Assembly (NCBI GenBank): GCA_044224855.1
Contig: JBGAJP010000003.1
Location: 27,745-91,744, forward strand
Direction: 5' to 3'
Length of the DNA stretch: 64,000 bases
From: Pontiellaceae bacterium
GTDB taxonomy: Bacteria; Verrucomicrobiota; Kiritimatiellia; Kiritimatiellales; Tichowtungiaceae
Below are positions 46,094 to 63,506 of this stretch, one piece after another (the first letter of the stretch is position 1; each line of letters starts with the position of its first letter). A program made the translations under genes and the position numbers. The notes under the pieces were generated by a model. That model ran no database searches, was not told the origin of the DNA, and saw nothing but the letters and a program-made list of their open reading frames with translations.

Positions 46094-46201
46094 CAGCAAA
46101 GGCTTTCGCCGCAAAATTCACCAAGTTAAGGAGTGTAAAAAACTGCTGAATTTGGTCTTCTTGAAGCACAATAGCCGCCGCAGAGCGGTCAGGAGGACTC
46201 T

Positions 46202-47395
46202 ATGGGAAAATGGATGCTGGGCTTGATGGTTGCAGCGATAGCTGCCGGCGGATATGGCAACGACTGGCCGGTTTGGCGAGGTCCAGATAATAACGGAATT
46301 TCAAAAGAGACCGGCTGGGATCCCAGGAGTGCCAAAAAACTCTGGACGAAGGAACTGGGCGACGGCTACTCATCGGTCAGCGTCAAAGACGGCCGGCTTT
46401 ACACGACCGGGTTTTCATCCGGCGCTGACAAGGCGGGCAAAGACACGGTTTATTGTCTCGATGCAAAAACCGGAAAAGAAATCTGGAGCCACTCGTATCC
46501 CAGTCAGTCCGGATCGTACAAGGGTCCGCGCGCCACGCCGGTTTGTGACGGCGACGTGGTTTATATGTTCAGCCGCGAAGGTCTGCTGATCTGTCTCGAC
46601 GCCGCTTCCGGCAAAGTGAAGTGGGAAACGGATGTACTCACCGGAACCGGCAACCAGAACATTAAATGGGGGCTGTCCTCCTCTCCGGTTGTTGAAGGCG
46701 ACCTGATTCTGCTTAACGTTGGTTCCACCGGAACGGCCGTTGACAAAAACAGCGGCAAAATCAAATGGAAGAGCGCCGGAACCTCCGGTTACGCCTCGCC
46801 GGTAGTCTTTGATTTCAAAGGCAAACGCTGCGCCGCGATCTTTTCAGCGCCCGGTCTTCAGGTGGTCGATGTCAAAACCGGCGGTAAGATCAGCTCCTTT
46901 AACTGGGAAACCAAATACGACGTCAACAGCGCCGACCCGCTGGTTATCGGCGATCGGATCTTCATCTCTTCCGGTTACGCCCGCGGCTGCGGCATGCTCG
47001 ATTTTTCCTCCGGCGAACTGAAACCGGTGTGGGAAAACAGCCTGATCAAAGCGCATTTCGGCAGCAGTGTCTGTATCGACGGGTTCATCTACGGTGTCGA
47101 CGGACAGGCTAAAGGAAAAGGCCCGCTGCGCTGTGTTTCCGCCGCTGACGGTTCCGAGCAGTGGAACGCGCCGGTCAACTTCGGCTCGCTGATGGCCGCC
47201 GACGGCAAGCTGATTGTACTCGGCGAAGACGGAACACTTATCTTCGCGGATGTCTCTGCCGAAAAATATACCGAGATTTCCAGAATGGACACCGGAATCG
47301 GCCCGCTCTGCTGGACCGCGCCGGTATTGGCGAACGGCATCATCTACTGCCGCAATGACAAGGGAACGCTCGTCGCGATCGATGTCAGCAAATAA
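46202..47395 (+). CDS. PQQ-like beta-propeller repeat protein, paralog P1 (secreted)
   Basis: AGGAGG RBS and a signal peptide. N-terminal motif NDWPVWRGPDNNG, followed by repeated blade-like units such as VKDGRLY, GDVVYMF and CLDAKTGKEIW. Confidence 0.8.
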   Translation: MGKWMLGLMVAAIAAGGYGNDWPVWRGPDNNGISKETGWDPRSAKKLWTKELGDGYSSVSVKDGRLYTTGFSSGADKAGKDTVYCLDAKTGKEIWSHSYPSQSGSYKGPRATPVCDGDVVYMFSREGLLICLDAASGKVKWETDVLTGTGNQNIKWGLSSSPVVEGDLILLNVGSTGTAVDKNSGKIKWKSAGTSGYASPVVFDFKGKRCAAIFSAPGLQVVDVKTGGKISSFNWETKYDVNSADPLVIGDRIFISSGYARGCGMLDFSSGELKPVWENSLIKAHFGSSVCIDGFIYGVDGQAKGKGPLRCVSAADGSEQWNAPVNFGSLMAADGKLIVLGEDGTLIFADVSAEKYTEISRMDTGIGPLCWTAPVLANGIIYCRNDKGTLVAIDVSK

Positions 47396-48077
47396 GACAC
47401 TCCTGATCTGCCGCTGCGCCGGGCGCCGCCTGCTTAAACAGGAGGCGCTCGAACCGCTTTTGCGGCAGGACGGGGCGGTTACGGTTCCCGATCTCTGTCA
47501 GGCCGCCGCTGCAAAAGACCCGGTTCTTGGGCAAATCGCCGGCGCGGAATTTCCGGTCGTTTGCGCCTGCCATCCGCGCGCGGTTCGCGCGCTCTTTGCG
47601 TTTGCCGGGTTTCCGCTTCCGCAAAACACGGAATTTATAAACCTTCGCATTTCATCCGGCGGTTCATCCGTTCAATCGGATGCCGCCTGGTATCCGGTCA
47701 TAGACGAAAACCGCTGCACGAACTGCGGGCAGTGTTTCGAGTTCTGCCTTTTCGGTGTCTATGAAAAGAATTCCGCCGGGAAAGTCCGCGTGGTGAATCC
47801 GCACAGCTGCAAAAACAACTGTCCGGCCTGTGCCCGGATCTGTCCCGCCGCCGCCATTATTTTCCCCAAAGTCGGCGAAGCGCCGATCAACGGCGCAGAA
47901 ATTTCCGACGAGGAAGCCCTTAAGGCGAACATCAAAATCAACGTCGACGAAATTCTTGGCGGCGATGTTTACGCCGCGCTGAATGCCCGCAAACAGAAGC
48001 GCCGCTCGCTGCTCGATCAAAAGAAAATCGAGCAGGCGCTGGCGGAGCGGAAGAAATGTTCGGAGGGCAGCGTATGA
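47382..48077 (+). CDS. 4Fe-4S dicluster ferredoxin-domain protein with a Cys-rich N-terminal domain
   Basis: CTNCGQCFEFC and CKNNCPACARICP. The start at MSANKT overlaps the end of P1 by 14 nt. Confidence 0.7.
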   Translation: MSANKTLLICRCAGRRLLKQEALEPLLRQDGAVTVPDLCQAAAAKDPVLGQIAGAEFPVVCACHPRAVRALFAFAGFPLPQNTEFINLRISSGGSSVQSDAAWYPVIDENRCTNCGQCFEFCLFGVYEKNSAGKVRVVNPHSCKNNCPACARICPAAAIIFPKVGEAPINGAEISDEEALKANIKINVDEILGGDVYAALNARKQKRRSLLDQKKIEQALAERKKCSEGSV

Positions 48078-49267
48078 GCGCCACGTTGATGAAACGGATG
48101 CTGACCGAGCCGGACAAGCGACTGCTGTGGAAGTTCGCCTATAACTTCGGCTTTAAAGGAATGCGCTCCATCGAAAAATTCCAGAAGCGCCTCAAGCGCG
48201 GCGAATATTTCCCGGCCTTTTTATTTCTGTCGGTCACCAACGCCTGCAATCTTGCCTGTCAGGGATGCTGGGTGTCACAAACCAATCCGCCCAAACAGAT
48301 CGCGCCCGGAACGCTTGATAACGTCATCACCGAATGTAAGGCGCAGGGTTCCTGTTTCTTCGGTATCCTCGGCGGCGAACCGCTGCTCTATGACGGCCTC
48401 TTCAAGGTTTTCGAAAAACATCCCGACTGCTATTTCCTGCTCTTCACCAATGGCACGATGATCACAGACGCGGTCGCGAAAGAGATGCGGCGTATCGGCA
48501 ACATCAGTCCGCTCATCAGCATCGAAGGGCTTGAGGAAGTCAGCGACGTGCGCCGCGGCGGAAACAAGGTGTATGAACAGACGCTGGCGGGACTGGCTAA
48601 CTGCCGCGCGAACCGTCTGGTTACCGGTGTCTGCACCAGCGTCTGCAAATCCAACATCGACGACCTGGCTACCGAAAAGTTCGTGAACGATGCCGCCGCG
48701 TTCGGCGCGCACTATCTCTGGTATTACATCTACCGCCCGGTCGGACCGAATCCGTCGCCGGAACTCGCGCTTGACGCGGAACAGATCACCCGCCTGCGCC
48801 GCTTCATCGTCGATATCCGCCTCACAGCGCCGCTGGTGGTGGTTGACGCCTACTGGGACGATAAAGGCCGGGCGCTCTGCCCGGCGGCAGTCGGCATCGC
48901 CAATCACGTCAGTCCTGACGGTTATATCGAACCGTGCCCGCCGCTTCAGTTCGCCAAGGACAACATCGGCGACGGAACCGGGCTCTACGACCTTTTCAAC
49001 CATTCCGAATTTCTCGCTGACTTCCGCCGGATGTGCTGCAAAACCACGCAGGGCTGCATCATCATGGAACATCCCGATCAGCTCGCGGACTTTATCAAAC
49101 GCGAAGATGCGGTCGACAGCTCCGGGCGCGGCACGCTGCTGGCCGAGCTTGGCCGGACGTGTCCTTGCGGCAGCCACCATCAGCCCGGCGAAGAAATTCC
49201 GGAGCGCAGTTGGGCCTACCGTTTTGCGAAGAAAAACTGGTTTTTCGGTTTCGGAGCGTACGGGTGA
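48074..49267 (+). CDS. Radical SAM protein, subfamily not recognised
   Basis: SVTNACNLACQGCW (CX3CX2C) and GGEPLL. C-terminal Cys-rich region. ATGA overlap with the ferredoxin gene. Confidence 0.8.
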   Translation: MSATLMKRMLTEPDKRLLWKFAYNFGFKGMRSIEKFQKRLKRGEYFPAFLFLSVTNACNLACQGCWVSQTNPPKQIAPGTLDNVITECKAQGSCFFGILGGEPLLYDGLFKVFEKHPDCYFLLFTNGTMITDAVAKEMRRIGNISPLISIEGLEEVSDVRRGGNKVYEQTLAGLANCRANRLVTGVCTSVCKSNIDDLATEKFVNDAAAFGAHYLWYYIYRPVGPNPSPELALDAEQITRLRRFIVDIRLTAPLVVVDAYWDDKGRALCPAAVGIANHVSPDGYIEPCPPLQFAKDNIGDGTGLYDLFNHSEFLADFRRMCCKTTQGCIIMEHPDQLADFIKREDAVDSSGRGTLLAELGRTCPCGSHHQPGEEIPERSWAYRFAKKNWFFGFGAYG

Positions 49268-50790
49268 TGAAACAGACGGCGGCAAAATACGGAGTTCCGA
49301 CGGAACGGTTCGAACGCGAGCAGCTCATGCTCGCAGTTTCCCGGTATGCCGCGGAACATCAGCTGGTGCCGCCGCTCTCGATAGAAGAACTGCGCGATCA
49401 CGCCGGAAATATTGCGGCCGATCCGGGCCTGATCGACTATGTGATGGTGCTGCTCAACAACGAAGTCTGGCGCGAAACAGTCGCTTCCATTCCGTACGAA
49501 CGCCGCCTGCTTCTTCTTCCGCAATGCCTGCGCGACATTCAAGCCTGTCCGGCCAAACTCGATGAGTTCGGCCTGCTCTGCGAAGAGTGCGGACGGTGCA
49601 ATATCGGCGGACTTCAGGCTCTCGCCGAAGAACTGGGTTACGTCGTACTGATCGCCGAAGGCTCAACGGTCGTTTCCAGACTGCTGGAAGGCGGCAAGGT
49701 CGATGCGGTCATCGGCGTCAGCTGCCTCGCCGCGCTGGAAAAATCTTTTTCGCGCATGGCGGATGGTGCCATTCCCGGTCTCGCGATTCCGCTGACCGTT
49801 GATGGCTGCGCCGGAACTGAAATAGACGTCGAGCATGTCCGCGATGCGATCAAACTGAAATCTTCCGCACCGTGGAAAAACACGCTCGATACCGCCCGTC
49901 TGCACGAAGTCGTCGACGGATGGTTTTCCGCCGTCGGCGATTGGAATACGGAAACCCGTACCGGCCAGATCGCCTGCGAGTGGCTGCTCAAAGACGGCAA
50001 GCGCTGGCGTCCGTATCTGCTGGCTTGCACCTACAGCGCGCTCAACGGCGGCACAACGGAACTGCCCGACGAAGTCCGCCGCCTCGCCATTGCCGTCGAA
50101 TGTTTTCACAAAGCTTCGCTTATTCACGATGACATCGAAGACGGCGACGACCTGCGTTACGGCGAGCCTGCGCTTCACCGTCAATACGGACTTGCCGTTG
50201 CCATCAACGCCGGCGACCTGCTGGTCGGCGAAGGCTACCGCTGGATCGCTTCCGTCGAAACCCGTACCGCCGAACTGCTGCGTATTGCCGCAGAAAATCA
50301 CCGTACTCTCTGCCTCGGGCAGGGCGAGGAACTCTACGGTCTTGCGAACGGAACAGCGTTTACCGCGAAAGAGATCATTGAAATTTTCCGGCGCAAAACC
50401 GCGCCGGCTTTCGGCGCGGCGCTTCTGCTCGGCGCCGTCGCTGCCGGAGCGGACCGCGCGCTGCTCGAAACGCTCCAGTCTTTCAGCGAATCGCTTGGTA
50501 TCGCCTACCAGATCCGCGACGATCTCGAAGAATACAAATCCGGCGAAGCACGCGACCTGCGTGCTTCGCTGCTGCTCGCGCTGGCCAATGACCATTCGCC
50601 GGCGCTCCGGCTGACCGCTGAAACCGCGCAGTTGAGCCACCTCTTTGATGAACTGATGATTCCAGAAAAAGCGGCGCAGCTGCTGGAGCACTATAAAAAC
50701 GAAGCGGTCCGCGCACTGAACCCGCTGAAAAACGCGTTGCTCAAAAGTCTGCTCCGGCGGGTTGCCGCTAAAATGCTGGGCGGAGGATGA
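49267..50790 (+). CDS. Fusion of a DUF116-like Cys-rich domain and a trans-polyprenyl diphosphate synthase
   Basis: The N-terminal half has LPQCLRDIQACP...LLCEECGRCNIGG. The C-terminal half has GKRWRP, FARM LIHDDIEDGDDLR, KTAPAF, and a variant second Asp-rich motif IRDDLEE. Confidence 0.75.
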   Translation: MKQTAAKYGVPTERFEREQLMLAVSRYAAEHQLVPPLSIEELRDHAGNIAADPGLIDYVMVLLNNEVWRETVASIPYERRLLLLPQCLRDIQACPAKLDEFGLLCEECGRCNIGGLQALAEELGYVVLIAEGSTVVSRLLEGGKVDAVIGVSCLAALEKSFSRMADGAIPGLAIPLTVDGCAGTEIDVEHVRDAIKLKSSAPWKNTLDTARLHEVVDGWFSAVGDWNTETRTGQIACEWLLKDGKRWRPYLLACTYSALNGGTTELPDEVRRLAIAVECFHKASLIHDDIEDGDDLRYGEPALHRQYGLAVAINAGDLLVGEGYRWIASVETRTAELLRIAAENHRTLCLGQGEELYGLANGTAFTAKEIIEIFRRKTAPAFGAALLLGAVAAGADRALLETLQSFSESLGIAYQIRDDLEEYKSGEARDLRASLLLALANDHSPALRLTAETAQLSHLFDELMIPEKAAQLLEHYKNEAVRALNPLKNALLKSLLRRVAAKMLGGG

Positions 50791-50794
50791 CGCC

Positions 50795-51574
50795 ATGGAA
50801 TCTCTGGCCGACCGCCTGATTCACGCCGCCGCCTGCTCCCGCCGGTTTCTGGAACAGGAATCGCGCAGTCAAATCGCCCGCTTCATTCTCAGCCGGCAGA
50901 ATTCTGACGGCGGGTTTCGAGGAAAAAGCGCGGAGAGCGATCTCTACTATACGGTTTTTGCTGCGGCCGGGCTGAAGGCGCTCGGCTGGCGTATTCCGGC
51001 ATGGTCGCTTTGGAAATACATCAGGCAGTTCGGTTCGGGCGAAGAGCTCGATCTGGTTCATCTGTTCTGTCTGATCCGCTTGCGCGCAGCTTTTCCGATG
51101 ACGGGTAAAACGAGGCGTCAGCTTTTCCGGAACATGGAAGAACTGCCTGCGGACTCAGCTTATGATTTTTTCCTGAAACAGCTGTCCGGGGATTGCCTGG
51201 GAATCGCCCGTCTGCCGGTTGCGCCGCGACCCGTTTCGCTTACGGATCCGACGCCGAATCTCGCGGCGGCGATCGTCGTCAACCGGACCGAGGGGAAAGT
51301 CGCCGCCGGGGTATTGCTCAATCGGATTTGCAGTTCCGGCGGCTTTGCCGCAACGGATCAGCTGAATTCCGCCGACCTGCTGTCCACCGCTACGGCGCTG
51401 TTTGCGCTGAGGATTCTCCATGCGGATCTCGATCCGGTCCGCCGCCCGTGTATGGAATTTATCGAATCGCTCTGGCGCGACAGCGGCGGCTTCGCCGGAC
51501 ATGTAACGGACGAATTCGAAGACGTCGAATACACCTTCTACGCGCTGCTCAGTATCGGATGTTTAATGGAATGA
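50795..51574 (+). CDS. Prenyltransferase/squalene-oxidase repeat protein (protein-prenyltransferase beta-subunit-like alpha-alpha toroid)
   Basis: Repeated QNSDGGFRG, SSGGFAA and DSGGFAG motifs across 259 aa. Confidence 0.7.
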   Translation: MESLADRLIHAAACSRRFLEQESRSQIARFILSRQNSDGGFRGKSAESDLYYTVFAAAGLKALGWRIPAWSLWKYIRQFGSGEELDLVHLFCLIRLRAAFPMTGKTRRQLFRNMEELPADSAYDFFLKQLSGDCLGIARLPVAPRPVSLTDPTPNLAAAIVVNRTEGKVAAGVLLNRICSSGGFAATDQLNSADLLSTATALFALRILHADLDPVRRPCMEFIESLWRDSGGFAGHVTDEFEDVEYTFYALLSIGCLME

Positions 51575-51648
51575 TTTGCCGGATCCACGCCGGGTACGGC
51601 TGAGTTCCGGCAGTACTGGTAAAGCCGGACCTGAAAGTTCCGGCTTAT
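51573..51648 (+). repeat. REP-family element copy 3 (left flank of the RAYT gene)
   Basis: gatttgccggatccacgccgggtacggctgagttccggcagtact (45 nt identical to 52332-52376), then the hairpin aagccggacctgaaagttccggctt. Confidence 0.85.
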
Positions 51649-51714
51649 GGGTTGGAATGGTAAAGCCTGAGCTTAGCGCGAAGCGCGTAGCCCCGGCTTC
51701 AAATGGAGAGAAGG

Positions 51715-52329
51715 ATGGAAAATACAGTGAAGTTCTTCCGGCGGAACCTGCCTCACTGGCTGGTGTCAGACCGGTCATACTTCGTTACCATCCGTTTGCA
51801 TGGAACACTTCCGCAAACCGTTGTGCGGACTTTTCAGGAGGAGCGGGATCGTCTGGATGCTTCCTCGCCCGAGCTTATGGATTTACAGCGCAGACAGTTT
51901 TTGCAGTTGGAGAAAATGCTGGATGCGTGCGAAGCGGGGAGTGCTTGGCTGGCGAATCCTGATATTGCCGCCATGGTTTTGGAAAACCTGGATTGGCTTC
52001 GCGCGGAACGCGGATGGCGGATTTATGCCGGAGTCGTGATGCCAACGCATCTGCATTTACTGATGCGCAGTGAGGACGAACGATCCGGCGATCTCCTGAA
52101 TGATCTGGCTCATTTTAAACGCTTTTCAGCGAGCAAAGCGAATCAGATGCTGGGACGAACCGGGCCGTTCTGGGCGAGGGAACATTTTGATCATTGGATT
52201 CGAAACCGGGGAAAATTCGAAGGAACGGTTCGGTATATTCTAAACAATCCGGTGAAGGCCGGATTGGCGGCAGACTGGCGGGAATGGCCGTGGTATTGTC
52301 TGGATGACTCAATTCGGGAACTGGTTTGA
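51715..52329 (+). mobile_element. REP-associated tyrosine transposase (RAYT, IS200/Y1-type HUH)
   Basis: FFRRNLPHW, HUH motif PTHLHLLM, and C-terminal catalytic-Tyr context VRYILNNPVKAGL. Flanked by REP copies. An alternative ATG lies at 51703. Confidence 0.85.
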
Positions 52330-52331
52330 AA

Positions 52332-52409
52332 GATTTGCCGGATCCACGCCGGGTACGGCTGAGTTCCGGCAGTACTTTAGTAAAGCCGGAACTTTTAGGT
52401 CCGGCTTAT
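52332..52409 (+). repeat. REP-family element copy 4 (right flank of the RAYT gene)
   Basis: Same 45-mer, then the hairpin aagccggaacttttaggtccggctt. Confidence 0.85.
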
Positions 52410-52411
52410 GA

Positions 52412-55386: not shown

Positions 55387-55436
55387 TAGGGGATACTCAG
55401 CTCCGCGGTAACAGCGGCAAGACGGCTAAATTCCGA

Positions 55437-55484
55437 AAAAATGTACCCCTTGATCTTTACGGTCGAGGCGCTTCAAAGATACAC
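55437..55484 (+). repeat. Copy of the last ~48 nt of the cyclase gene (53984-54031), placed upstream of paralog P3
   Basis: aaaatgtacccNNtgatctttacggtcgaggcgcttcaaagatacact matches at 46 of 48 positions. It contains the stem atcttt/aaagat. Confidence 0.85.
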
Positions 55485-55535
55485 TGCGCGTACTCAGAGT
55501 TATCCATAAGGATTTAAACAGAAAGGCCGCAGAAA

Positions 55536-56864
55536 ATGAACAAAGCTGTGATTTGTGCAATGGCGGGACTCACGTTGTTTTCACAGGCATTTGCTGCCGA
55601 CTGGCCGCAGTTTTGCGGTCCGGACCGGAACAATACTTCTGCTGAAACCGGGCTGGCCCGGAGCTGGCCTGCTGCCGGTCCCGACGTGCTGTGGACCGCA
55701 AACGTCACAAGCGGGTATGCCGGTCCTGCCGTTAAAAACGGCGCGGTGTATCTGCTGGAGCACGACGGAGTCCGCAGCAGCGTCCGTGCGCTGGAGCTCG
55801 GTTCCGGCAAAGAACTCTGGATCTGTTCATTTGATGATCCCGGATCGGTGGATAAAAAGTATCCGGGTACCCGCGGTACGCCCACGGTAACGGACGATTC
55901 GCTGTATGCTGTGACACTTCTCGGCACAGTGGTCTGCGTGGATTTGAAATCTCATCAGATAAAATGGCAGCACAACCTGACTAAGGATTATGGCAAGAAA
56001 CGGGGTGGCTGGGGAGTTGCTCAGTCGCCGGTGCTGGTTGATGACCTGGTAATTATCGCGCCGCTGACGGAAACCGGAAGCCTCGTGGCTTTGAACAAAA
56101 ATTCCGGCAAGGAAGTCTGGAAAGTAGCCGGATTTCCCGGCGACGGGTTCGTTTCGCCGGCGATGATTTCCATCGACGGGGAGGATCAGATTCTTATGGT
56201 GGCGGGCGGATCAAAGCCCGAGAAGCCGCCTCGCCGCGCAAAAGATGCCGACGCGGAAGACGAGGCGCCAAAAGGAAAGCAGCGCCCCACGTATGTTTTT
56301 GCCGTTTCGCCGAAGGACGGCAGGGTGCTTTGGAGCTATGAGGGATGGTCCTGCAGCAACCCGATCCCACATCCGGTTCCGGCGGGCGCAAACACGCTGT
56401 TTATCACGTCCGGGTACAAAGCCGTTTCTTCACTGCTCAAGGTGGAGAAAAAAGCCGACGGTTATGAAATCAAAGAACTGTTTAAAACCGAAAGCGCGGC
56501 GACACAGATTGAGCAGCCGGTTTTTGCAAACAACCATCTGTTTGTCGGCGGCACAACGAAAAGCGCCCGGCGGGGACTCGTCTGCATGGATCTGGAAGGA
56601 AACGTAAAGTGGGAGAGCAGCAAGGTTGAAGGCTCTCCGGCGTTCAATGATCTTAATATGATTGCCGCCGACGGAATGCTGATCGGCCTCGATGGCGATT
56701 CCGGGAAACTGTATCTGATCGACGCGACACCCAAGGCCTTCAAGGCGCTCGCGGCCGCCACCGTTCTGCCCGAAAAAGGCCAAACCTGGGCGCCGATTGC
56801 TTTGTCGGACGGCAAACTGCTTGTCCGGGATCACACGGTGATGAAGTGCCTCAACCTGAAATAA
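55536..56864 (+). CDS. PQQ-like beta-propeller repeat protein, paralog P3 (secreted)
   Basis: Signal peptide and motif ADWPQFCGPDRNN. Collinear with P2, with an insert KPPRRAKDADAEDEAPKGKQRP at the same position. Confidence 0.8.
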   Translation: MNKAVICAMAGLTLFSQAFAADWPQFCGPDRNNTSAETGLARSWPAAGPDVLWTANVTSGYAGPAVKNGAVYLLEHDGVRSSVRALELGSGKELWICSFDDPGSVDKKYPGTRGTPTVTDDSLYAVTLLGTVVCVDLKSHQIKWQHNLTKDYGKKRGGWGVAQSPVLVDDLVIIAPLTETGSLVALNKNSGKEVWKVAGFPGDGFVSPAMISIDGEDQILMVAGGSKPEKPPRRAKDADAEDEAPKGKQRPTYVFAVSPKDGRVLWSYEGWSCSNPIPHPVPAGANTLFITSGYKAVSSLLKVEKKADGYEIKELFKTESAATQIEQPVFANNHLFVGGTTKSARRGLVCMDLEGNVKWESSKVEGSPAFNDLNMIAADGMLIGLDGDSGKLYLIDATPKAFKALAAATVLPEKGQTWAPIALSDGKLLVRDHTVMKCLNLK

Positions 56865-56878
56865 ATTTTGCTGAATGC

Positions 56879-58324
56879 ATGCGTCGCATGAAACAGAAAA
56901 CAGCCAGTCTGCTGACAGCGGTACCCGTTCTTGTTCTATGCGGGGGTCTCGCCGCTTTTCTGCTCGCGCGCTGGTTTGCGTATGATCCGGCGCGCGGGCT
57001 GGCGCGCAGCCTGCCCGGTATGGACGGCAGTCCTGCCGGATCGAAACAGGCGGGCGCGAGCGACTTGAAGGTTGATCTGGCCGGAACGCTTGAAAAGTTC
57101 GACGGCGTACCGTCCAGTCTGCCCGGCTCGTGGCCGCGCTTTCGCGGTCCGGATTTTGATAACATCTATAAAGCCGGTGTGAAGCTGGCGGACAGCTGGC
57201 CGGAGTCCGGCCCGGAAATTCTCTGGTCGGTTGCGCTGGGCGAAGGCCACGCCGCGCCCGCCGTTTTCAACGGCTGCGTCTATCTGTTCGACTACGACGA
57301 GCAGAAGCGTTCTGACGCGCTGCGCTGTTTTTCGCTGGCCGACGGCAAAGAAATCTGGCGGCACTCCTACATACTGCCCGCCAAGCGGAACCATGGACTT
57401 TCACGAACCATTCCGGCGGTCACCGAAGACTGCATCGTGACGATCGGTCCGCGCTGCCACGTTTCATGTGTCGAAACCGCGACCGGCAAATTCCGCTGGG
57501 GGATTGATCTGCAAAAGGAGTATGGCACTACGGAACCGCTGTGGTTTACCGGACAATGTCCGCTGATCGATGAAGGCCGCGCGATTCTTGCGCCCGGCGG
57601 GCCCGACGTCCTGCTGATGGCAGTTGACTGCAAAACCGGCGCTGTCATTTGGAAGACGCCGAATCCGGGCGGCTGGAAAATGTCGCACTCATCCGTTATG
57701 CCGCTGACGCTTCACGGCGAAGCCATGTATGTTTACGCCGCGGTCGGCGGCATGGCCGGCATTTCCAAAGACGGAAAACTCCTGTGGCAGATTCCCTGGA
57801 GCGCCTCGGTGATCGCTCCGTCACCGGTTCCGGTTTCCGGAAACCGGATTTTCATCACCGCCGGTTACGGCGCGGGCAGTCTGATGGTACAGATCGACAA
57901 GACTGCTGACGGCTTTACCGCAAAAGAAGTTGCGCGCACCGGCCCGCAGGACTGGCTGGCGAGCGAACAGCAGACGCCGGTTCTGCACGACGGCCTGCTT
58001 TATGGAATCATGCCGAAAGACGGCGGTGCGCTGAAACAGCAGTTCGTCTGCTACGATCCGGCCGGCGGACTGGTCTGGTCGAGCGGCAAAACGAGTCGCT
58101 TCGGACTCGGCCCGTTCCTGCTGGCCGACGGAAAGTTTTTTATATTGGACGACGACGGCACATTAACCATGCTGGCCGTTAGCCGGGACGGATATAAACA
58201 GCTCGCGCAGCACAAGGTGCTGGACGGACACGATGCCTGGGGGCCGATCGCCATCGCCGGAACCCGAATGCTCCTGCGCGATTCGACCCGGATGGTCTGT
58301 ATTGAAACCGGAGTTAAAAAATGA
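56879..58324 (+). CDS. PQQ-like beta-propeller repeat protein, paralog P4 (N-terminal TM anchor)
   Basis: TM helix LLTAVPVLVLCGGLAAFLLA and motif GSWPRFRGPDFDN. Confidence 0.8.
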   Translation: MRRMKQKTASLLTAVPVLVLCGGLAAFLLARWFAYDPARGLARSLPGMDGSPAGSKQAGASDLKVDLAGTLEKFDGVPSSLPGSWPRFRGPDFDNIYKAGVKLADSWPESGPEILWSVALGEGHAAPAVFNGCVYLFDYDEQKRSDALRCFSLADGKEIWRHSYILPAKRNHGLSRTIPAVTEDCIVTIGPRCHVSCVETATGKFRWGIDLQKEYGTTEPLWFTGQCPLIDEGRAILAPGGPDVLLMAVDCKTGAVIWKTPNPGGWKMSHSSVMPLTLHGEAMYVYAAVGGMAGISKDGKLLWQIPWSASVIAPSPVPVSGNRIFITAGYGAGSLMVQIDKTADGFTAKEVARTGPQDWLASEQQTPVLHDGLLYGIMPKDGGALKQQFVCYDPAGGLVWSSGKTSRFGLGPFLLADGKFFILDDDGTLTMLAVSRDGYKQLAQHKVLDGHDAWGPIAIAGTRMLLRDSTRMVCIETGVKK

Positions 58325-59271
58325 GCAGTGCAAAGCAAAGCTGGATCTGGTTTGCCGTGCTTTTGCTGCTGATTGCCGGCTCCGGAATTTATTTGGGAAC
58401 GAGCCGCCGCGCAGAGCTTGGCAAAAGTTTTGCCTACTCCGTCGATGACTACCGGCAGGTTGACCCCGCGCTTCTGCGTTACGCCGAGACAGGCAGCCTC
58501 CGTCCGGCGATTAAAAAACTTTCCGCGTTGGCTATTGCACCGGACGGGAAAATTTACGTCGCCGGCGAAAATGCCATCGAAATTCTTCCGGACAGAACCA
58601 TTCTCCCGGTTGCCGGAACGCCGGCCTGTATTGCGGTGGATGACGACGGTACGGTATTTGCCGGCCTGCAAAATCACGTCGAAGTTTTTTCCAAAGACGG
58701 AAAAAGCACGACGTGGCCGTCGCCCGGCGACAAGGCTTACCTGACTTCCATCGCGGTTGATGACCGGTATGTTTATGTGGCTGACGCAGGCAGCCGCCGC
58801 GTCTGGCGGTACGGCAAGGCGGGTGGCGCGCCGTTTGAAATCGGTGCAAAAGATGAGGCGAACGGCGTGCGCGGTTTCTATATTCCCAGTCCGTTCTTTG
58901 ATCTGGCTGTCGGAACCGACGGCTCGCTGTGGGTGGTTAATCCCGGTTATCACGCGCTGGAAAATTACAGCGTGGACGGACGGCTTATTTCATCTTGGCA
59001 GAACAGTTCATTCGGCATTCAGGGATTCAGCGGATGCTGCAACCCGGCGAATTTTGCGCTGATGCCCGACGGTTCATTCGTTACCGCTGAAAAAGGACTG
59101 CCGCGTATCAAGATTCACAATCTGGACGGTTCGCTGCGGTGCGTCGTCGCGGCACCGGATCAGTTTGAAAAAGGCGCGGCCGGACTCGACGTGGCGGCGG
59201 ACCGGCAGGGCCGCGTCTATGTGCTCGACCCGGTTCGTGACGCTGTCCGGATTTTTGAGGAGAAAAAATGA
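58321..59271 (+). CDS. NHL-repeat six-bladed beta-propeller protein (N-terminal TM anchor)
   Basis: ATGA overlap with P4. TM helix WIWFAVLLLLIAGSGIYL. NHL-like units YVYVADAGSRRVWRY, GSLWVVNPGYHALENY and GRVYVLDPVRDAVRIF. Confidence 0.7.
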   Translation: MSSAKQSWIWFAVLLLLIAGSGIYLGTSRRAELGKSFAYSVDDYRQVDPALLRYAETGSLRPAIKKLSALAIAPDGKIYVAGENAIEILPDRTILPVAGTPACIAVDDDGTVFAGLQNHVEVFSKDGKSTTWPSPGDKAYLTSIAVDDRYVYVADAGSRRVWRYGKAGGAPFEIGAKDEANGVRGFYIPSPFFDLAVGTDGSLWVVNPGYHALENYSVDGRLISSWQNSSFGIQGFSGCCNPANFALMPDGSFVTAEKGLPRIKIHNLDGSLRCVVAAPDQFEKGAAGLDVAADRQGRVYVLDPVRDAVRIFEEKK

Positions 59272-59897
59272 AAACGGCCGGAAGACGGGATTTTATTAAA
59301 AACCTCGCACGAGGCGCAGTGCTGGCCTGTATCGCCGGAGTCTGCGGCATACTGATTTCGCGGAAAAATAAATATCAATGCAACGGGCGCTGCGGTACGT
59401 GCAAACCTGCCAACGGCGGGGCGTGCCCGATGGGATCATCCGGATTCGTCTGGCAGATTGACCCGGAGAAATGCACCCAGTGCGGACGCTGCGCCACGCA
59501 TTGCGTACTGGCGCCGTCGGCGGTGAAGTGCTTTCACTCCTATTCCATCTGCGGCTATTGCGATCTATGCGGCGGCTATCTGCGTCCCGATGCTAAAGAG
59601 CGCAATACCGGAGCGGAAAACCAGCTCTGTCCGACGGCGGCTATTCGCCGGAAATTCATTGAGGATCCTTATTACCAGTACACCATTGACGAAAAGCTCT
59701 GCATCGGTTGCGGCAAATGCGTGAAGGGCTGCGGTATGTTCGGCAACGGTTCGCTTTATCTTCAGGTCAAACATGACCTTTGCGTTAATTGCAACGAATG
59801 CGCCATCGCCCGCGCCTGTCCGTCCGGTGCCTTCCGGCGTGTGCCTGCCTCCGATCCCTATCTGCTGAAATCCAACAAGGAACGGAGAATCAGCTGA
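59268..59897 (+). CDS. NapG-like Tat-signal poly-ferredoxin (periplasmic 4Fe-4S protein)
   Basis: Twin-arginine motif GRRDFIKNLARGAVLA. Cluster motifs CTQCGRCATHC, CGYCDLCGG, CIGCGKCVKGC and CVNCNECAIARAC. Confidence 0.7.
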   Translation: MKTAGRRDFIKNLARGAVLACIAGVCGILISRKNKYQCNGRCGTCKPANGGACPMGSSGFVWQIDPEKCTQCGRCATHCVLAPSAVKCFHSYSICGYCDLCGGYLRPDAKERNTGAENQLCPTAAIRRKFIEDPYYQYTIDEKLCIGCGKCVKGCGMFGNGSLYLQVKHDLCVNCNECAIARACPSGAFRRVPASDPYLLKSNKERRIS

Positions 59898-61270
59898 TGC
59901 AGAAATCAGTTCAAACCGCAAAGACGCAAAGACGCCAAGCCCACGGGACTGCCTTCCTTCGCTTCTTCGCGCCTTTGCGGTCGATCATCCCGATGTTTTG
60001 TTTAGCAGGTTCTGCGCAGGCGGAATTCCGCTTTCCGATGCCGGAGTTCGCTTCGGGCTATAAATACCCGGCGGTCTATACGCCAGAGCCGTCGAACCTG
60101 ATGGCGGGCTGGGACATCGTGGTACTGATCGCCGCGCTGACGCTGGCGGCAATCTTTGTGTTAAAGCGCCGCAGGCGCCGCGAAATATTTCTGCTCACGC
60201 TTTTTTCACTGATCTATTTCGGCTTCTGGCGCAACGGCTGCGTCTGTTCGGTCGGCTCGGTGCAGAACGTCGCGACGGGTTTGTTTAATCCTGCCTTTGG
60301 CGTTCCGCTGACGGTGCTGGTTTTTTTTGCCGTACCGCTGATCTTTGCTTTACTGTTCGGCCGCGTTTTCTGTGCGGCGGTCTGTCCGCTGGGTGCGATT
60401 CAGGAATCCGTCGCGATCAAACCGGTCAAAGTTCCGCTGGCGGTCGAGAAGGTGCTATCGATTGTTCCGGTTATCTATCTCGGACTGGCGATGCTTTCCG
60501 TGGCGATGGGCGCGGGCTTCCTCATCTGCCGGTACGATCCGTTCGTTGGATTCTTCCGCATGGGTGCCAGCTTCAGTCTGCTGATTTTCGGCGGCCTCAT
60601 GCTGGTGCTCGGTATTTTTGTGGCGCGGCCTTACTGCCGTTTTCTCTGTCCTTACGGCGTACTGCTCAACTGGGCGTCGAAACTTTCGCGCCGTCACGCC
60701 ACCATTACACCGTCAGAGTGTATCCAGTGCGGACTTTGCGCTGATTCGTGTCCCTACAACGCCATCAACGAACCGGCGCCCGAAGCGGCGCCGGAAAGCC
60801 GCCGCAAGGGCGCACGGCGGCTCGGCCTGCTGATTCTGCTGCTTCCGGTTCTCATTGCGCTCGGCATTGGAACCGGCAGCCTGCTGCGCGAACCGCTTTC
60901 GCGGTTGCATCCAACCGTCCGGCTGGCCGAACGCATCGCCGGCGAAGAGCTGGGGAGGTACACGGATAATACAATCGAGTCCGCAGCCTTTCGCGCATCG
61001 GATACTCCCAACGAAAAACTTTATACGGAAGCCGTGGCGCTTAAAGGCCGGTTCGGACGCGGTGGAAAATGGTTCGGCGCGTTTATCGGTCTGATGATCG
61101 GCTGCAAGCTGATCGGCGTTTCCGTCCGCCGGAAACGTGCGGGTTATGAACCGGACCGCGGCACCTGCTACAGCTGCGGCCGCTGTTTTAAATTTTGCCC
61201 GGTGAAGGCCTCGTGCCGCGAAAAACTTGCCGGGCCCACGCCGGATACGACTGAGTTCCGGCAGTACTGA
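59897..61270 (+). CDS. NapH/NosH-like integral-membrane polyferredoxin (putative quinol dehydrogenase subunit)
   Basis: Membrane CX3CP motifs FCAAVCPLG and YCRFLCPYG, plus CIQCGLCADSCP and CYSCGRCFKFCP. The 5-prime 90 nt and the last 13 codons are built from repeat elements, so both the true start and the true end are uncertain. Confidence 0.7.
   Translation: MQKSVQTAKTQRRQAHGTAFLRFFAPLRSIIPMFCLAGSAQAEFRFPMPEFASGYKYPAVYTPEPSNLMAGWDIVVLIAALTLAAIFVLKRRRRREIFLLTLFSLIYFGFWRNGCVCSVGSVQNVATGLFNPAFGVPLTVLVFFAVPLIFALLFGRVFCAAVCPLGAIQESVAIKPVKVPLAVEKVLSIVPVIYLGLAMLSVAMGAGFLICRYDPFVGFFRMGASFSLLIFGGLMLVLGIFVARPYCRFLCPYGVLLNWASKLSRRHATITPSECIQCGLCADSCPYNAINEPAPEAAPESRRKGARRLGLLILLLPVLIALGIGTGSLLREPLSRLHPTVRLAERIAGEELGRYTDNTIESAAFRASDTPNEKLYTEAVALKGRFGRGGKWFGAFIGLMIGCKLIGVSVRRKRAGYEPDRGTCYSCGRCFKFCPVKASCREKLAGPTPDTTEFRQY
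59914..59981. repeat. Empty inverted-repeat hairpin of the KDAK-type family that flanks the GxxExxY gene
   Basis: aaccgcaaagacgcaaagacgccaag ... cttccttcgcttcttcgcgcctttgcggt. The arms are reverse complements at about 21 of 25 positions and resemble 63052-63079. Confidence 0.7.
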
Positions 61271-61320
61271 AGTAAAGCCGGAACTTAGGGTGTATTCGCC
61301 CGTAGATCCGGCCTATAAGG
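61226..61320 (+). repeat. REP-family element copy 5 (long variant), overlapping the 3-prime end of the NapH-like ORF
   Basis: cttgccgggcccacgccggatacgactgagttccggcagtactgaagtaaagccggaacttaggg...cgtagatccggcc. Confidence 0.7.
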
Positions 61321-61327
61321 GTGGTGT

Positions 61328-63046
61328 ATGGAAGAGAAATCAGAATTTAAACAGCGGCCGGTGCTGAGTCTGCTGGCGCAGAGCGTCGCGATGGCGGCGG
61401 CTGTGTTCTCGCTGATCCTCTGCATCCTGCTGATCGCCGACTTCGTGCGGATTCAGAAAATGGATCCGCTGAACGATCCGCATCTACTTCAGCTGCGCGA
61501 AAAGCTGGCCGATTCGACGGACGGCCGCGAAGCGCTGGCGGAACAGATCCGCACGTTCGATCTTTATGCACGTCGCGCCTTTTTCAGCAATCAGGAGCAG
61601 CGGCACATGGGCGGCCTGCTTCTGTTGGGCGGTGCAGCGGTCTGTTTTGCTGCGCTGAAACTTTCCAGGCTTTGGAAGCCGGAACTTCCGAAGGTCGGTA
61701 AACCGGAACCGGTGGATCATTGGGAACTCAACGCGCTGTTCCGGCAGTTGATGGCCATGAGCGGTATTCTGCTGGCTGCCGTTGCGCTGTTCCTGGCTTT
61801 CGCGGTGAAAAGTGATTTGTCCGTTGTACTTGAGCAGTCGAAGCAACAACCCGTAGCGCCTGCCGCGCAAGTGACACAAACAGCTCAGCCTATGCAATTC
61901 ATGGGCGCGGCGAAAACCAATTGGCCGTCACTGCGCGGACCGGGCGGAACCGGCGTAGCGCATTTCACGAACGCGCCGACCGGTTGGGATGTTAAAACCG
62001 GCGAAGGCATCCTGTGGAAAACAGAAATTCCTGTCCCCGGATTCAACTCGCCGATTGTCTGGGGCGGCCGGATTTTCATGTCGGGTGCCGATGATGAAGG
62101 GCAGGAGATTTTCTGCTTCGATGCGGATACAGGTAAACAGCTCTGGACGAAGGCGGTGAAGACCGCGGTCAAACTTCCTGAAGTGTCGAAAGATACAGGC
62201 TATGCCGCGCCGACGATGACAACCGATGGCCGGCGTGTGTTTGCCATCTTCGCGACCGGCGAGCTGGCCGCGTTCGGTTTCGACGGCAACCCCGTCTGGC
62301 AGAAAAATCTGGGCGTGCCGGAAAATCCGTACGGCATGGGCTCGTCGCTCATTACCGATGGCGAACGGCTGTTTGTGCAATACGACCATCAGGATGCGCA
62401 AAAAATAATGGCCTTTGACTGCGCCACCGGCAATCCGGTCTGGCAAACTGCGCGCGCGCATATTTCCTGGTCGAGCCCGGCGCTGATCGAAACCGCTTCC
62501 GGCCCGCAGCTGATTCTCAACGACGAAGAAAATGTGACGGCCTATGACCCGGTTTCCGGAAAACAGATCTGGCAGGTCAAATGTCTCGGCGGCGAAGTCG
62601 CACCGTCACCCGCTTTCAACGGCAGGGACATTGTTTTCGTGGCGAACGAATATGCGCAGGCCAGCGCGCTGAAGCTGAGCGGCGGCACGCCGGAAATCCT
62701 GTGGCAGTATGAAAAATTGCTGCCGGAGATCAGCAGCCCCGTCGCGGCGGAAAACTTTTTTTTCATCGCCACCTCGGCGGGGGATGTAGTCTGTCTTGAT
62801 GCCGCGACAGGCAAAGAGAAGTGGAAGCAGGAGTTCGACGAAGGATTCACTTCATCGCCGGTACTCGTCGGCGACCGTATTTACGCCATCGACCTCACCG
62901 GCGTCATGCACATTTTCGCCGCCGCCGGAGAATATAAGGAGATCGGAACGGTCGAAACGGGCGAGCCGGTTTACGCCACACCTGCTTTCATGAACGGACG
63001 GATTTATATTCGCGGCGATAACAACCTCTACTGCGTCGGAAGATGA
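61328..63046 (+). CDS. PQQ-like beta-propeller repeat protein, paralog P5 (three N-terminal TM helices)
   Basis: About 190 aa of membrane domain, then TNWPSLRGPGGTG and propeller repeats. Confidence 0.8.
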   Translation: MEEKSEFKQRPVLSLLAQSVAMAAAVFSLILCILLIADFVRIQKMDPLNDPHLLQLREKLADSTDGREALAEQIRTFDLYARRAFFSNQEQRHMGGLLLLGGAAVCFAALKLSRLWKPELPKVGKPEPVDHWELNALFRQLMAMSGILLAAVALFLAFAVKSDLSVVLEQSKQQPVAPAAQVTQTAQPMQFMGAAKTNWPSLRGPGGTGVAHFTNAPTGWDVKTGEGILWKTEIPVPGFNSPIVWGGRIFMSGADDEGQEIFCFDADTGKQLWTKAVKTAVKLPEVSKDTGYAAPTMTTDGRRVFAIFATGELAAFGFDGNPVWQKNLGVPENPYGMGSSLITDGERLFVQYDHQDAQKIMAFDCATGNPVWQTARAHISWSSPALIETASGPQLILNDEENVTAYDPVSGKQIWQVKCLGGEVAPSPAFNGRDIVFVANEYAQASALKLSGGTPEILWQYEKLLPEISSPVAAENFFFIATSAGDVVCLDAATGKEKWKQEFDEGFTSSPVLVGDRIYAIDLTGVMHIFAAAGEYKEIGTVETGEPVYATPAFMNGRIYIRGDNNLYCVGR

Positions 63047-63051
63047 GATTT

Positions 63052-63079
63052 AACCGCAAAGGCGCAAAGACACGAAGGA
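63052..63079. repeat. Left inverted repeat of the GxxExxY cassette
   Basis: aaccgcaaaggcgcaaagacacgaagga. Its reverse-complement partner is at 63481-63506 (about 21 of 26 match). Confidence 0.7.
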
Positions 63080-63086
63080 GAGAGGA

Positions 63087-63473: not shown

Positions 63474-63480
63474 CAGGCTT

Positions 63481-63506
63481 TCTTCGTGCCTTGGCGTCTT
63501 AGCGGT
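63481..63506. repeat. Right inverted repeat of the GxxExxY cassette
   Basis: tcttcgtgccttggcgtcttagcggt. Confidence 0.7.

Follow-up and report, generated by a model that had tools for sequence, protein, structure and literature searches.

Why should the gene for a class II terpene cyclase be locked, through overlapping start and stop codons, to genes for exported propeller proteins and a membrane polyferredoxin? The question is raised by positions 46202–63046, on the plus strand, of a 64,000-nucleotide stretch of contig JBGAJP010000003.1 from a Pontiellaceae bacterium; this whole stretch is referred to below as the window. We propose that the region is a super-operon in which a cassette for a cyclised polyprenyl lipid (module A) is tied to an NAD(P)H-fed conduit serving a periplasmic assembly of NHL and other propellers (module B), a reading that we advance tentatively and whose chances we put close to, though short of, even. 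An open reading frame (ORF) listing, together with Pfam and NCBIfam scans, places 14 same-strand genes in the region: five PQQ_2 propellers and one NHL propeller, making six propellers in all, along with FerA, a radical SAM enzyme, a DUF116–synthase fusion, PTsm, the cyclase, a Tat-motif ferredoxin, a Fer4_5 polyferredoxin and a transposase. An earlier reading of the letters alone, here called the original prediction, had named 14 same-strand genes and these domain families, and had drawn attention to the combination of an isoprenoid module, a radical SAM/ferredoxin pair, six propellers and a NapGH-like pair. Genes, families and combination are all borne out by the ORF listing and by annotation with Pfam hidden Markov models (HMMs). 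The transposase (RAYT) is the sole protein among the 14 genes to exceed an NCBIfam cut-off. The genes are as follows.

46202–47395, plus strand: Prop1, a secreted, BamB-like propeller (PQQ_2 2.3e-36) with a signal peptide and the motif DWPVWRGP
47382–48077, plus strand: FerA, a cytoplasmic protein (Fer4_6/Fer4_10) whose N-terminal domain is rich in Cys and whose ferredoxin domain is of the 2x[4Fe-4S] type
48074–49267, plus strand: radical SAM enzyme (Radical_SAM 2.9e-15) with a Cys-rich C-terminal half
49267–50790, plus strand: fusion of DUF116 (2.6e-37) and a trans-polyprenyl synthase (polyprenyl_synt 1.3e-41)
50795–51574, plus strand: PTsm, a small cytoplasmic alpha/alpha-toroid (Prenyltrans 7.3e-12) without DxDD
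51569–52394, plus strand: RAYT insertion, with its gene at 51703–52329 (NF047646, 83.9 bits against a cut-off of 80)
52412–54064, plus strand: class II terpene cyclase resembling squalene-hopene cyclase (SHC) (SQHop_cyclase_C 2.7e-36, SQHop_cyclase_N 6e-16)
54061–55386, plus strand: Prop2, a secreted propeller (PQQ_2 1.2e-18), its gene ATGA-coupled to the cyclase gene
55536–56864, plus strand: Prop3, a secreted propeller (PQQ_2 3.1e-19), an alternative type of post-cyclase propeller
56846–58324, plus strand: Prop4, a propeller (PQQ_2 2.7e-21) anchored in the membrane by its N-terminus, with GTG 56846 or ATG 56879 as start
58321–59271, plus strand: membrane-anchored, six-bladed NHL propeller (NHL 4e-08) with an invariant GCCNP (C239, C240)
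59268–59897, plus strand: in-frame Cys4–NapG-like fusion (Fer4 families), whose small, membrane-anchored Cys4 part with a Tat motif spans about residues 1–57
59897–61270, plus strand: NapH/NosR-type membrane polyferredoxin (Fer4_5 1.5e-14) with two CX3CP and two [4Fe-4S] motifs
61328–63046, plus strand: Prop5, a propeller (PQQ_2 7.1e-33) with an N-terminal domain of three membrane segments

The eight coupled junctions of the original prediction are all exact on direct reading of the sequence (8/8).

47382/47395, plus strand: Prop1–FerA junction, a 14-nt overlap
48074, 54061, 58321 and 59268, plus strand: ATGA junctions
49265 and 59895, plus strand: TGATG junctions
50790/50795, plus strand: synthase–PTsm junction, a 4-nt gap

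It is the ATGA overlap at 54061 that couples the cyclase gene to the gene for the secreted Prop2. The gene set, overlaps included, recurs at 54–79% cyclase identity in Pontiella sulfatireligans (L001 and L165), in L164 from a Kiritimatiellaceae genome and in the metagenome contig L002. The identical 14-nt overlap and ATGA junctions are found in L164, and in L001 and L165 the PTsm gene overlaps the cyclase gene. The P. sulfatireligans synthase gene has been relocated between two propeller genes, which alters the order and leaves the set intact. The start–stop overlap between cyclase and propeller is kept in the window and, via a glyoxalase insertion, in P. sulfatireligans; in L164 a spacing of 1 nt separates the two genes. 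The inserted gene, of the glyoxalase/bleomycin-resistance fold, occupies 5176–5592 of L165, between the cyclase and the next propeller, and overlaps both. Taken together, the comparison supports the view that the region is a real, conserved and tightly coupled operon.

Where does this operon begin and end? The features that bear on its limits are the following.

46090–46117, plus strand: consensus match to a sigma-70-like promoter, about 85 nt upstream of the first gene
63087–63473, plus strand: PDDEXK_3 gene (PF13366 3.7e-41), a probable insertion between Prop5 and a NuoEF-like gene
63517–64000, plus strand: start of the gene for a NuoE–NuoF–ferredoxin flavoprotein (2Fe-2S_thioredx 3.3e-46), which runs off the window

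The promoter match is the only sigma-70-like site found in positions 45000–64000, where 6.5 were expected from shuffles, so that the sole such site in 19 kb adjoins the start of the first operon gene. No terminator-like site was found inside any plus-strand intergenic gap of the region, and the many weak terminator matches inside genes, on both strands, were judged uninformative. Both scans are weak evidence, as their models may not suit this phylum. An Rfam scan of the leader and gaps returned no riboswitch or known RNA in the region. The original prediction had ended the operon at 63046, a boundary that has to be given up: the PDDEXK_3 gene and then a NuoE-domain gene follow, and the gene set of the unit extends beyond that point. 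The PDDEXK_3 gene is present in the window and in L165 and missing from L164, where the Prop5 and NuoEF-like genes overlap by 4 nt. Only the NuoE-type [2Fe-2S] domain, in the first 161 codons of the NuoEF-like gene, lies within the window. On contig L163, which encodes an identical Prop5 protein and carries the same downstream genes, the gene product has at least 750 aa, and the NuoE–NuoF–ferredoxin fusion of L164 and L165 has 781 aa. In these last two loci the NuoEF-like gene is followed by genes for a GltD-like protein (Fer2_4, Fer4_20, Pyr_redox_2), a GT4 glycosyltransferase and one more propeller.

On what might the cyclase act? Its nearest solved relative is the SHC of A. acidocaldarius, and alignment with 1gsz pairs PDADDTA with PDVDDTA, DLTAH with DVTAH and VYGT with LYGT, with equivalents of SHC residues D374/D376/D377, H451 and Y495 all present. 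Among 18 diverse relatives the PDxDDT motif is invariant (the window reads PDADDTA), as are D317, D319, D320 and T321. The protein falls short of the length of SHC by about 90 aa and scores 97.1 bits with the SHC model TIGR01507, whose cut-off is 431.1; with TIGR01787 it reaches 117 bits of the 322.7 required, thus falling below the oxidosqualene-type cut-off as well. A scan with one genome per species found relatives in at least 595 species, from phyla that include Planctomycetota (with the Gemmataceae loci L037 and L042), Verrucomicrobiota, Lentisphaerota, Bacteroidota and Acidobacteriota. In taxonomic range (PVC and FCB bacteria, with Acidobacteriota) and in catalytic residues the enzyme matches the orphan ‘SHC-like’ clade, of which it is a member. 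In the relevant parts of Santana-Molina et al. (2020, PMC7306690), the planctomycete members of this clade are said to retain the catalytic residues, in a genomic context that hints at non-squalene precursors. The sections on the clade in a 2025 study, ‘The Evolutionary History and Modern Diversity of Triterpenoid Cyclases’ (PMC12414744), describe it as functionally unknown and without a structure, and place it outside SHC, as sister to epoxy-polyprenyl cyclases acting on head-to-tail substrates. In what the main texts of these two papers say of the clade, no function, substrate, cassette or envelope module is given (PMC7306690; PMC12414744). The Kiritimatiellales cyclases, at 530–550 aa, lie at or under the length filter of 550–700 aa applied in the later study.

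No squalene synthase gene (hpnCDE/sqs) or hopanoid tailoring gene occurs in the operon or in L001, L002, L164 and L165, the loci scanned. The formation of an epoxide requires O2. Since the cassette occurs in Pontiella, an obligate anaerobe (PMC7356697), an alkene would be favoured over an epoxide as the substrate of the cyclase.

The remaining proteins of module A are predominantly iron–sulphur and isoprenoid enzymes. FerA is probably the reductant of the radical SAM enzyme; in other phyla its counterpart is split into two genes. The radical SAM protein carries CNLACQGC, a CX3CX2C motif, and scores 57.3 bits with PF04055 (cut-off 29.5). It lies under all NCBIfam cut-offs, its top matches being NirJ2, AhbC/D, SkfB and, weakly, HpnH (36.7 bits against a cut-off of 225), and no characterised family fits it; the best solved relative is SkfB (1.4e-12). 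At twelve loci (L018, L032, L036, L040, L043, L051, L055, L056, L066, L069, L072 and L081) an alternative radical SAM protein of 534 aa, with a long N-terminal domain, replaces the window type between the ferredoxin and the cyclase/synthase, and may represent either a non-orthologous replacement or a different tailoring step.

The DUF116 domain of the synthase fusion has seven invariant cysteines in the family alignment. An Fe-S, flavodoxin-like role in electron transfer has been predicted for DUF116 (Makarova et al., 2015, PMC5898192), where the fusion with the synthase was noted and called uncharacterised. In the synthase part, the first Asp-rich motif reads HKASL[IV]HDDIEDxDxxRYG with DDIED invariant, and RYG stands in place of RRG in 51/51 members with the DUF116 fusion (R297-Y298-G299 in the window). 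The second motif is [DN]D[LI]x[DE], with family counts of [D36/N16]-D-[LI]-x-[D48/E4]; its first Asp is replaced by Asn in about 30% of members, and the window reads DDLEE (D418–E422). The residues at −5 and −4 before DDIED are small (Ala, Ser). The enzyme is nearer to short- and medium-chain synthases than to IspB. PTsm is predicted by AlphaFold2 (AF2), with a pLDDT of 92, to form a small alpha/alpha toroid, which gives weak fold matches to the monodomain class II cyclases 8PAK/8PAJ/MstE and to RabGGTase beta (prenyltransferase beta subunits). An alignment of its relatives contains neither a DxDD motif nor an invariant Cys/His zinc site. A hydropathy scan finds no membrane segments in the cassette proteins except for one hydrophobic stretch in the cyclase.

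At other loci (L011, L016, L045, L054, L065, L068 and L073, from Planctomycetota, Acidobacteriota and others) the cassette also comprises a GcvH-like protein, in which the lipoyl-lysine position is kept, a COG0523 (CobW-type) GTPase and a NifS-like cysteine desulfurase, an extension that hints at sulphur or metal-cluster chemistry. None of these three, nor the alternative radical SAM protein, is encoded anywhere in the 64-kb window.

Do the two halves of the operon belong together? Gene neighbourhoods were surveyed from both sides, by HMM mapping of the best 80 loci among the cyclase relatives in at least 595 species and by a reciprocal survey of 80 loci, on metagenome contigs, anchored on the NHL protein. 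Loci that have 8 kb or more on each side are called well flanked, and number 41 for the cyclase and 14 for the NHL protein. The core of module A consists of FerA, the radical SAM enzyme, the DUF116–synthase, PTsm and the cyclase, and is found in Planctomycetota, Verrucomicrobiota, Acidobacteriota, Bacteroidota (Marinifilum, Parabacteroides sp.), Lentisphaerota, Hydrogenedentes and others. Partners near the cyclase at the well-flanked loci are these.

DUF116–synthase: 30/41
FerA: 29/41
PTsm: 28/41
propeller: 13/41
NHL or NapH-like protein: 4/41

Module B, with the order Prop–NHL–small protein–NapG–NapH–Prop, appears in the NHL-anchored survey as a stand-alone operon, in which NapG-like, NapH-like and propeller genes are present at 14/14 well-flanked loci. 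Genes for the NuoEF-like and GltD-like proteins lie downstream of it at about 25 loci in addition to L164 and L165, commonly with another propeller gene after them. Upstream of most stand-alone copies are a GT4 glycosyltransferase, a LolD-like ATPase and a 1100-aa FtsX-type permease (MacB/LolCDE-like), an arrangement counted at 20–29 loci among L087–L160 (for example, L118 3006–8391). The single indivisible system of the original prediction does not survive this comparison, as module B is an independent and widespread operon that is accompanied by the cassette at 0/14 well-flanked NHL loci and at 2/80 overall; L089 is an NHL locus with the alternative radical SAM gene only. The co-location that the same prediction had proposed as a check does hold across lineages, for the modules are juxtaposed in Kiritimatiellota, Bacteroidota, Lentisphaerota, Planctomycetota and Ca. 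Zipacnadia, and their placement relative to each other takes at least four forms.

Window type: also L007, L029 (Bacteroidota), L079 (Planctomycetota) and L152
L017 (Lentisphaerales): module B directly before the cyclase alone
L043 (Ca. Zipacnadia): modules divergent
L088: a fourth arrangement

By our own estimate, the chance of finding the modules within 10 kb of each other is roughly 0.5% per genome, assuming one copy of each in about 4–5 Mb, against which module B stands at 4/41 well-flanked cyclase loci. The evidence supports modules that are separable, yet functionally linked.

What would module B do? The AF2 model of the NHL protein (pLDDT 86) has the generic NHL fold, and a fold search for an enzyme analogue was unproductive, matching only generic NHL domains. 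The family, which comprises 915 representative clusters at 50% identity (E<=1e-30), has an invariant motif F-x-G-C-C-N-P, whose adjacent cysteines come just after a low-confidence loop of the model; this vicinal Cys-Cys could be a redox-active disulfide or a metal site. The gene that follows was taken in the original prediction to be a single NapG-like gene. Its ferredoxin part is the mature region of a NapG-like periplasmic polyferredoxin, but the gene joins, in frame, two genes that stand apart in Pontiella (L001, 17388–18118) and in L002. In Pontiella the Cys4 protein has 58–65 aa, a Tat-like anchor and four cysteines, and directly precedes a ferredoxin with its own Tat signal; it is conserved in 43 loci. 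The fused protein of the window carries the twin-arginine motif RRDFIK from the small protein and has lost the native signal of the ferredoxin, which in orthologues includes RRNFVRG or RRDFMRG. The same in-frame fusion is present in L164 (10948–11577), and in both cases about 35 codons have been lost, including the ferredoxin Tat signal.

The NapH-like protein, with about six to seven membrane segments by hydropathy, contains the motifs CAAVCP, CRFLCP, CIQCGLCADSCP and CYSCGRCFKFCP. The motifs of the proposed NapGH-like module (two CX3CP and two [4Fe-4S]) are thus in place, whereas the scores lie far below the NCBI cut-offs for NapG and NapH: 20.8 bits with NF007012 (cut-off 269) for the NapG-like protein, and 37.9 with TIGR02163 (NapH/MauN; cut-off 213) and 28.4 with NF007013 (cut-off 234) for the NapH-like one. 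The operon contains no nap gene and no haem motif. The NuoEF-like orthologues of L164 and L165 match 9n5u_B ‘NfnB’ at 1e-208 and also 8oh5_B and HydB, and their GltD-like neighbours match 9bov_A, 9n5u_A ‘NfnA’ (1e-60) and 8oh5_C. Because NuoEF-like and GltD-like flavoproteins regularly follow module B, we infer that NAD(P)H is the more likely electron source, possibly via flavin-based bifurcation, rather than quinol alone. The quinol-derived electrons of the original prediction have accordingly become doubtful, the first of these NAD(P)H flavoprotein genes starting inside the window. The same flavoproteins could also reduce FerA, which would make a second possible link between the modules.

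The five PQQ_2 proteins are mutually 19–43% identical (Prop2 and Prop3, 43%). Prop1 to Prop3 have signal peptides and Prop4, like the NHL protein, has one N-terminal anchor, as judged from a hydropathy scan and the N-terminal sequences; the same scan gives Prop5 its three membrane segments. Each of Prop1, Prop4 and Prop5 has its own orthologues in the relatives, 43–82% identical. A propeller gene lies directly upstream of the ferredoxin gene in many phyla, and L004 has a Prop1 orthologue at 66% identity. Prop4, with a hydrophobic segment at 7–35, has in all relatives an orthologue (55–82% identical) whose gene immediately precedes that of the NHL protein, and Prop5 is always downstream of the NapH-like gene in the loci compared. 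After the cyclase region, P. sulfatireligans has a Prop2 orthologue (62% identical), and L164, L003 and L005 have the Prop3 type (62–73%); the window holds both. Because the paralogues diverge to 19–43% while each of Prop1, Prop4 and Prop5 keeps its own orthologues, recent amplification is not indicated, and the pattern fits distinct subunits of what may be one assembly. As to function, haem or PQQ redox centres in the propellers were considered and set aside, since no operon protein has a CxxCH motif and scores with the PQQ-dependent dehydrogenase model TIGR03075 are 32–47 bits against a cut-off of 480. With BamB models they score 30–112 bits, where the cut-offs are 285–423 (285 for TIGR03300), and no propeller N-terminus has a lipobox Cys.

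Considering these elements together, the scheme that we infer, as regards substrate, product, the direction in which electrons flow and the kind of link between the modules, would run as follows. Module A, in the cytoplasm or at the inner face of the membrane, would make a cyclised polyprenyl lipid that does not derive from squalene. The DUF116-fused synthase would supply a regular head-to-tail prenyl chain, and the SHC-like cyclase, probably with PTsm, would protonate its terminal C=C bond and cyclise it, while oxygen-independent tailoring would fall to the radical SAM enzyme, with FerA as its reductant, and to the Fe-S domain of DUF116. Module B would be a transmembrane electron conduit. Cytoplasmic NuoEF-like and GltD-like proteins, of the Stn/NfnABC–HydABC family, would oxidise NAD(P)H and pass electrons to the NapH-like membrane polyferredoxin, which would hand them to the Tat-exported Cys4 protein and the NapG-like ferredoxin, and these in turn, in the periplasm, to the NHL protein, which is anchored in the membrane and bears the invariant vicinal Cys-Cys, and to the BamB-like propellers that accompany it. 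For module B, the lipid of module A may serve as substrate, as membrane cofactor or as a requirement for assembly; alternatively, the two modules may share one low-potential electron supply. A bolder form of the proposal is possible but leans to the doubtful side: that this is an undescribed envelope system of hundreds of species (in the Planctomycetes–Verrucomicrobia–Chlamydiae group, Bacteroidota and Acidobacteriota), in which Bfu/Stn flavoproteins feed NapH- and NapG-like proteins and then NHL and other propellers, handling or built around an anaerobically cyclised polyprenyl lipid that is the product of the SHC-like enzymes.

Several observations weigh against this scheme. The cassette is missing from all 14 well-flanked NHL loci and accompanies only two of the 80, the modules lie apart in most genomes, and dependence of one on the other is not obligatory at the level of gene order. 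The window-type juxtapositions may share one origin by gene transfer, which would reduce the number of independent events. Ordinary chain elongation is not certain for so atypical a synthase, with its RYG in place of RRG and the partial degeneracy of its second Asp-rich motif. In the propellers, no feature was found that would bind or modify a lipid, and the lipid profiles published for Pontiella contain no unusual cyclic isoprenoid, such lipids not having been specifically sought (PMC7356697).

The same survey counts, and the single gene order shared by L007, L029, L079 and L152, would be expected if the modules were functionally unrelated and had become neighbours in Kiritimatiellales and a few other lineages by transfer of a fused block, the coupling being secondary. 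We consider this unlikely, given that at least four geometries exist, including the divergent L043 and L017 with module B before the cyclase alone, that at 13/41 loci propellers lie directly upstream of FerA or downstream of the cyclase without module B, and that the cyclase–propeller overlap persists in the window and P. sulfatireligans, with a spacing of 1 nt in L164. If the modules are linked, the lipid might instead be a redox or anchoring molecule, such as a prenyl-quinone-type compound or meroterpenoid with a cyclised tail, that acts as an electron partner of the NapH-like protein and is a cofactor of module B rather than something processed by it. PTsm does resemble isoprenoid-binding toroids, and NapH/NosR-type proteins interact with quinol. 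Pontiella makes the menaquinones MK-6 to MK-9 (PMC7356697), and relatives of the cyclase clade, in the sections of PMC12414744 that deal with them, act on prenylated aromatic or polyprenyl substrates (MstE, Lon15). Nevertheless, neither the operon nor the relatives’ loci contain a UbiA-type or ABBA prenyltransferase or an aromatic-ring pathway gene, and electrons could come from the conserved NAD(P)H flavoproteins without any need of a quinone; we regard a redox lipid as quite unlikely.

A role for module B in lipid trafficking or outer-membrane assembly is suggested by its neighbours elsewhere. The BamB-like proteins would be scaffolds, the MacB/LolCDE-like exporter and GT4 found at other loci would help to deliver a cyclic, perhaps glycosylated, lipid to the outer membrane, and the Fe-S chain would keep the NHL cysteines reduced. 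The GT4, LolD-like and 1100-aa FtsX-type genes upstream of module B at 20–29 loci, the GT4 gene after the GltD-like gene in L164 and L165, an ABC gene beside the cassette in L018, L021 and L079, and the weak BamB matches of the propellers all fit such a role. The Kiritimatiellales operon has no LolD/FtsX pair, however, the BamB scores are far below cut-off with no lipobox, and a five-protein Fe-S/flavin chain would be costly for mere thiol upkeep, which makes this explanation highly unlikely. That the operon is an ordinary hopanoid (squalene-hopene cyclase) cluster with an HpnH-like radical SAM enzyme is scarcely credible. Some sources annotate relatives of the cyclase as squalene-hopene cyclase or sporulenol synthase, and HpnH is a weak match at 36.7 bits, but the scores of 97 against 431 bits for TIGR01507 and 36.7 against 225 for HpnH, the shortfall of about 90 aa relative to SHC, the missing hpnCDE/sqs, hpnG and hpnN genes in the loci, and the placement of the clade outside SHC in the relevant part of PMC12414744 all count against it, and it was rejected on family cut-offs and missing hpn genes. 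Two further pathways were compared and put aside: the thallusin/ebo pathway (10.64898/2026.05.21.724671) has a different gene set, EboA–F with a UbiA-type enzyme, and a preprint on hopanoid transport (PMC12324291) does not mention the clade or its neighbours.

The region also bears traces of mobile elements and recombination.

51569–51635 and 52328–52394, plus strand: direct copies of a 67-nt REP-like element flanking RAYT (repeat families D1, D19 and I2)
61220–61286, plus strand: third copy of the 67-nt REP-like element (family D1, 88% identical)
55430–55535, plus strand: duplicated remnant, before Prop3, of the final ~90 nt of the cyclase gene together with the Prop2 ribosome-site region

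The RAYT gene is thus flanked on both sides by 67-nt repeats with hairpins (AGTTCCGGC...GCCGGAACT), and L164 has a gene of 203 aa at the same position. The third copy supplies the last 17 codons (ending LAGPTPDTTEFRQY) and the stop of the NapH-like gene, whose C-terminus has been rewritten by this mobile repeat. In one relative (P0083) the same peptide lies within an N-terminal extension of the cyclase. A REP-like 16-mer occurs five times in the window, against 0.01 expected, including at 2500–2515 and 43036–43051 on the minus strand. RAYT and the PDDEXK_3 gene are two small, selfish-looking insertions tolerated inside the operon. The duplicated remnant emerges from comparison of 53976–54071 with 55430–55546 (repeat families D7, 92% identical, and D15, 86%), the second copy being non-coding. 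It retains a mini-ORF of 22 codons (MYPLIFTVEALQRYTARTQSYP), ending about 30 nt before the Prop3 start, which may reflect either kept translational coupling or a recombination junction between propeller ‘alleles’. As both propeller types follow the 3′ end of the cyclase gene, in copies that are 86–92% identical, recombination at the cyclase–propeller junction is suggested as the route by which the second type was acquired, and the duplicated junction underlines the tight linkage of cyclase and propeller genes.

Upstream of the operon, positions 40306–46093 contain genes for a U32 peptidase (minus strand), an ECF-type sigma factor and its DUF6768 partner, an RlmN-like radical SAM protein (minus strand), a TspO/MBR protein, a CPBP protease of the Rce1-like type and an ORF6N protein. 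In other organisms, TspO and proteins like Rce1 have ties to isoprenoids or sterols. A functional tie of these two genes to the operon is unlikely, because P. sulfatireligans has thiS, thiG and thiH in place of the window’s upstream genes. With the Rce1-like protease in mind, protein prenylation by PTsm was also considered, and was rejected: PTsm is without a zinc site, the propellers carry export signals, an ORF6N gene lies between the protease and the operon, and the thi genes of P. sulfatireligans occupy the same place.

How new is this arrangement? The original prediction knew of no described system with this combination, and none was found in full-text searches of one library of papers, taken without supplementary figure S10 of PMC7306690, which concerns planctomycete context. 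New here are the full cassette, its presence in anaerobic Pontiella and its link to module B. The kinds of system behind the operon, a terpenoid cluster and a NapGH-like conduit, are known; there is a fair chance that their combination is a new kind of envelope system. As presented in the pertinent parts of PMC7306690 and PMC12414744, the ‘SHC-like’ clade is the main uncharacterised branch of the triterpenoid cyclases, its substrate would decide between origin scenarios for alkene- and epoxide-using cyclases, and the same knowledge could assign orphan lipid biomarkers to specific taxa. The operon and cassette provide a concrete set of five to six genes that gives this orphan family a testable context, and point to regular polyprenyl chains, not squalene, as the substrate class. 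Module B, itself a large uncharacterised set of gene families (915 NHL clusters at 50% identity), would if correctly read represent an unusual NAD(P)H-fed Fe-S route of electron delivery to periplasmic proteins that contain neither haem nor molybdenum.

Compared with known systems, the operon shares with SHC/hpn clusters the beta-gamma class II fold, the DxDDTA acid, QW-type repeats, a radical SAM enzyme in the cluster and a hydrophobic segment suited to monotopic membrane binding; unlike them it has no genes for squalene synthesis, HpnG/I/J/K or HpnN, and has the polyprenyl synthase fusion and ferredoxin instead. With Lon15, AtoE and the sporulene pathway (HepST–YtpB–SqhC) it would have in common a class II cyclase acting on a regular head-to-tail chain from a dedicated synthase. 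It differs from these in lacking an epoxidase or YtpB-type synthase, and in that the cassette occurs in obligate anaerobes, with Fe-S and radical SAM partners and envelope proteins. Module B resembles the NapGH, NosGH and NosR electron donors in pairing a membrane protein with two CX3CP and two [4Fe-4S] motifs with a Tat-exported polyferredoxin, whereas it is without NapAB, NosZ or a cytochrome partner, has extra membrane segments, has NHL and PQQ_2 propellers as partners, and has cytoplasmic NAD(P)H flavoproteins conserved alongside. Those flavoproteins, as seen in the L164 and L165 orthologues, have the NuoE, NuoF and ferredoxin domains and the GltD-like partner of the Stn/NfnABC and HydABC enzymes (Bfu family). 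They differ in having no hydrogenase or formate dehydrogenase catalytic domain and in being encoded with a membrane polyferredoxin and periplasmic proteins, and bifurcation is in their case a prediction from sequence. Finally, the PQQ_2 propellers belong, like BamB, to an eight-bladed family of the envelope; in contrast to BamB they are five distinct and individually conserved paralogues, two of them membrane-anchored, with scores below the BamB cut-offs and no lipoprotein signal.

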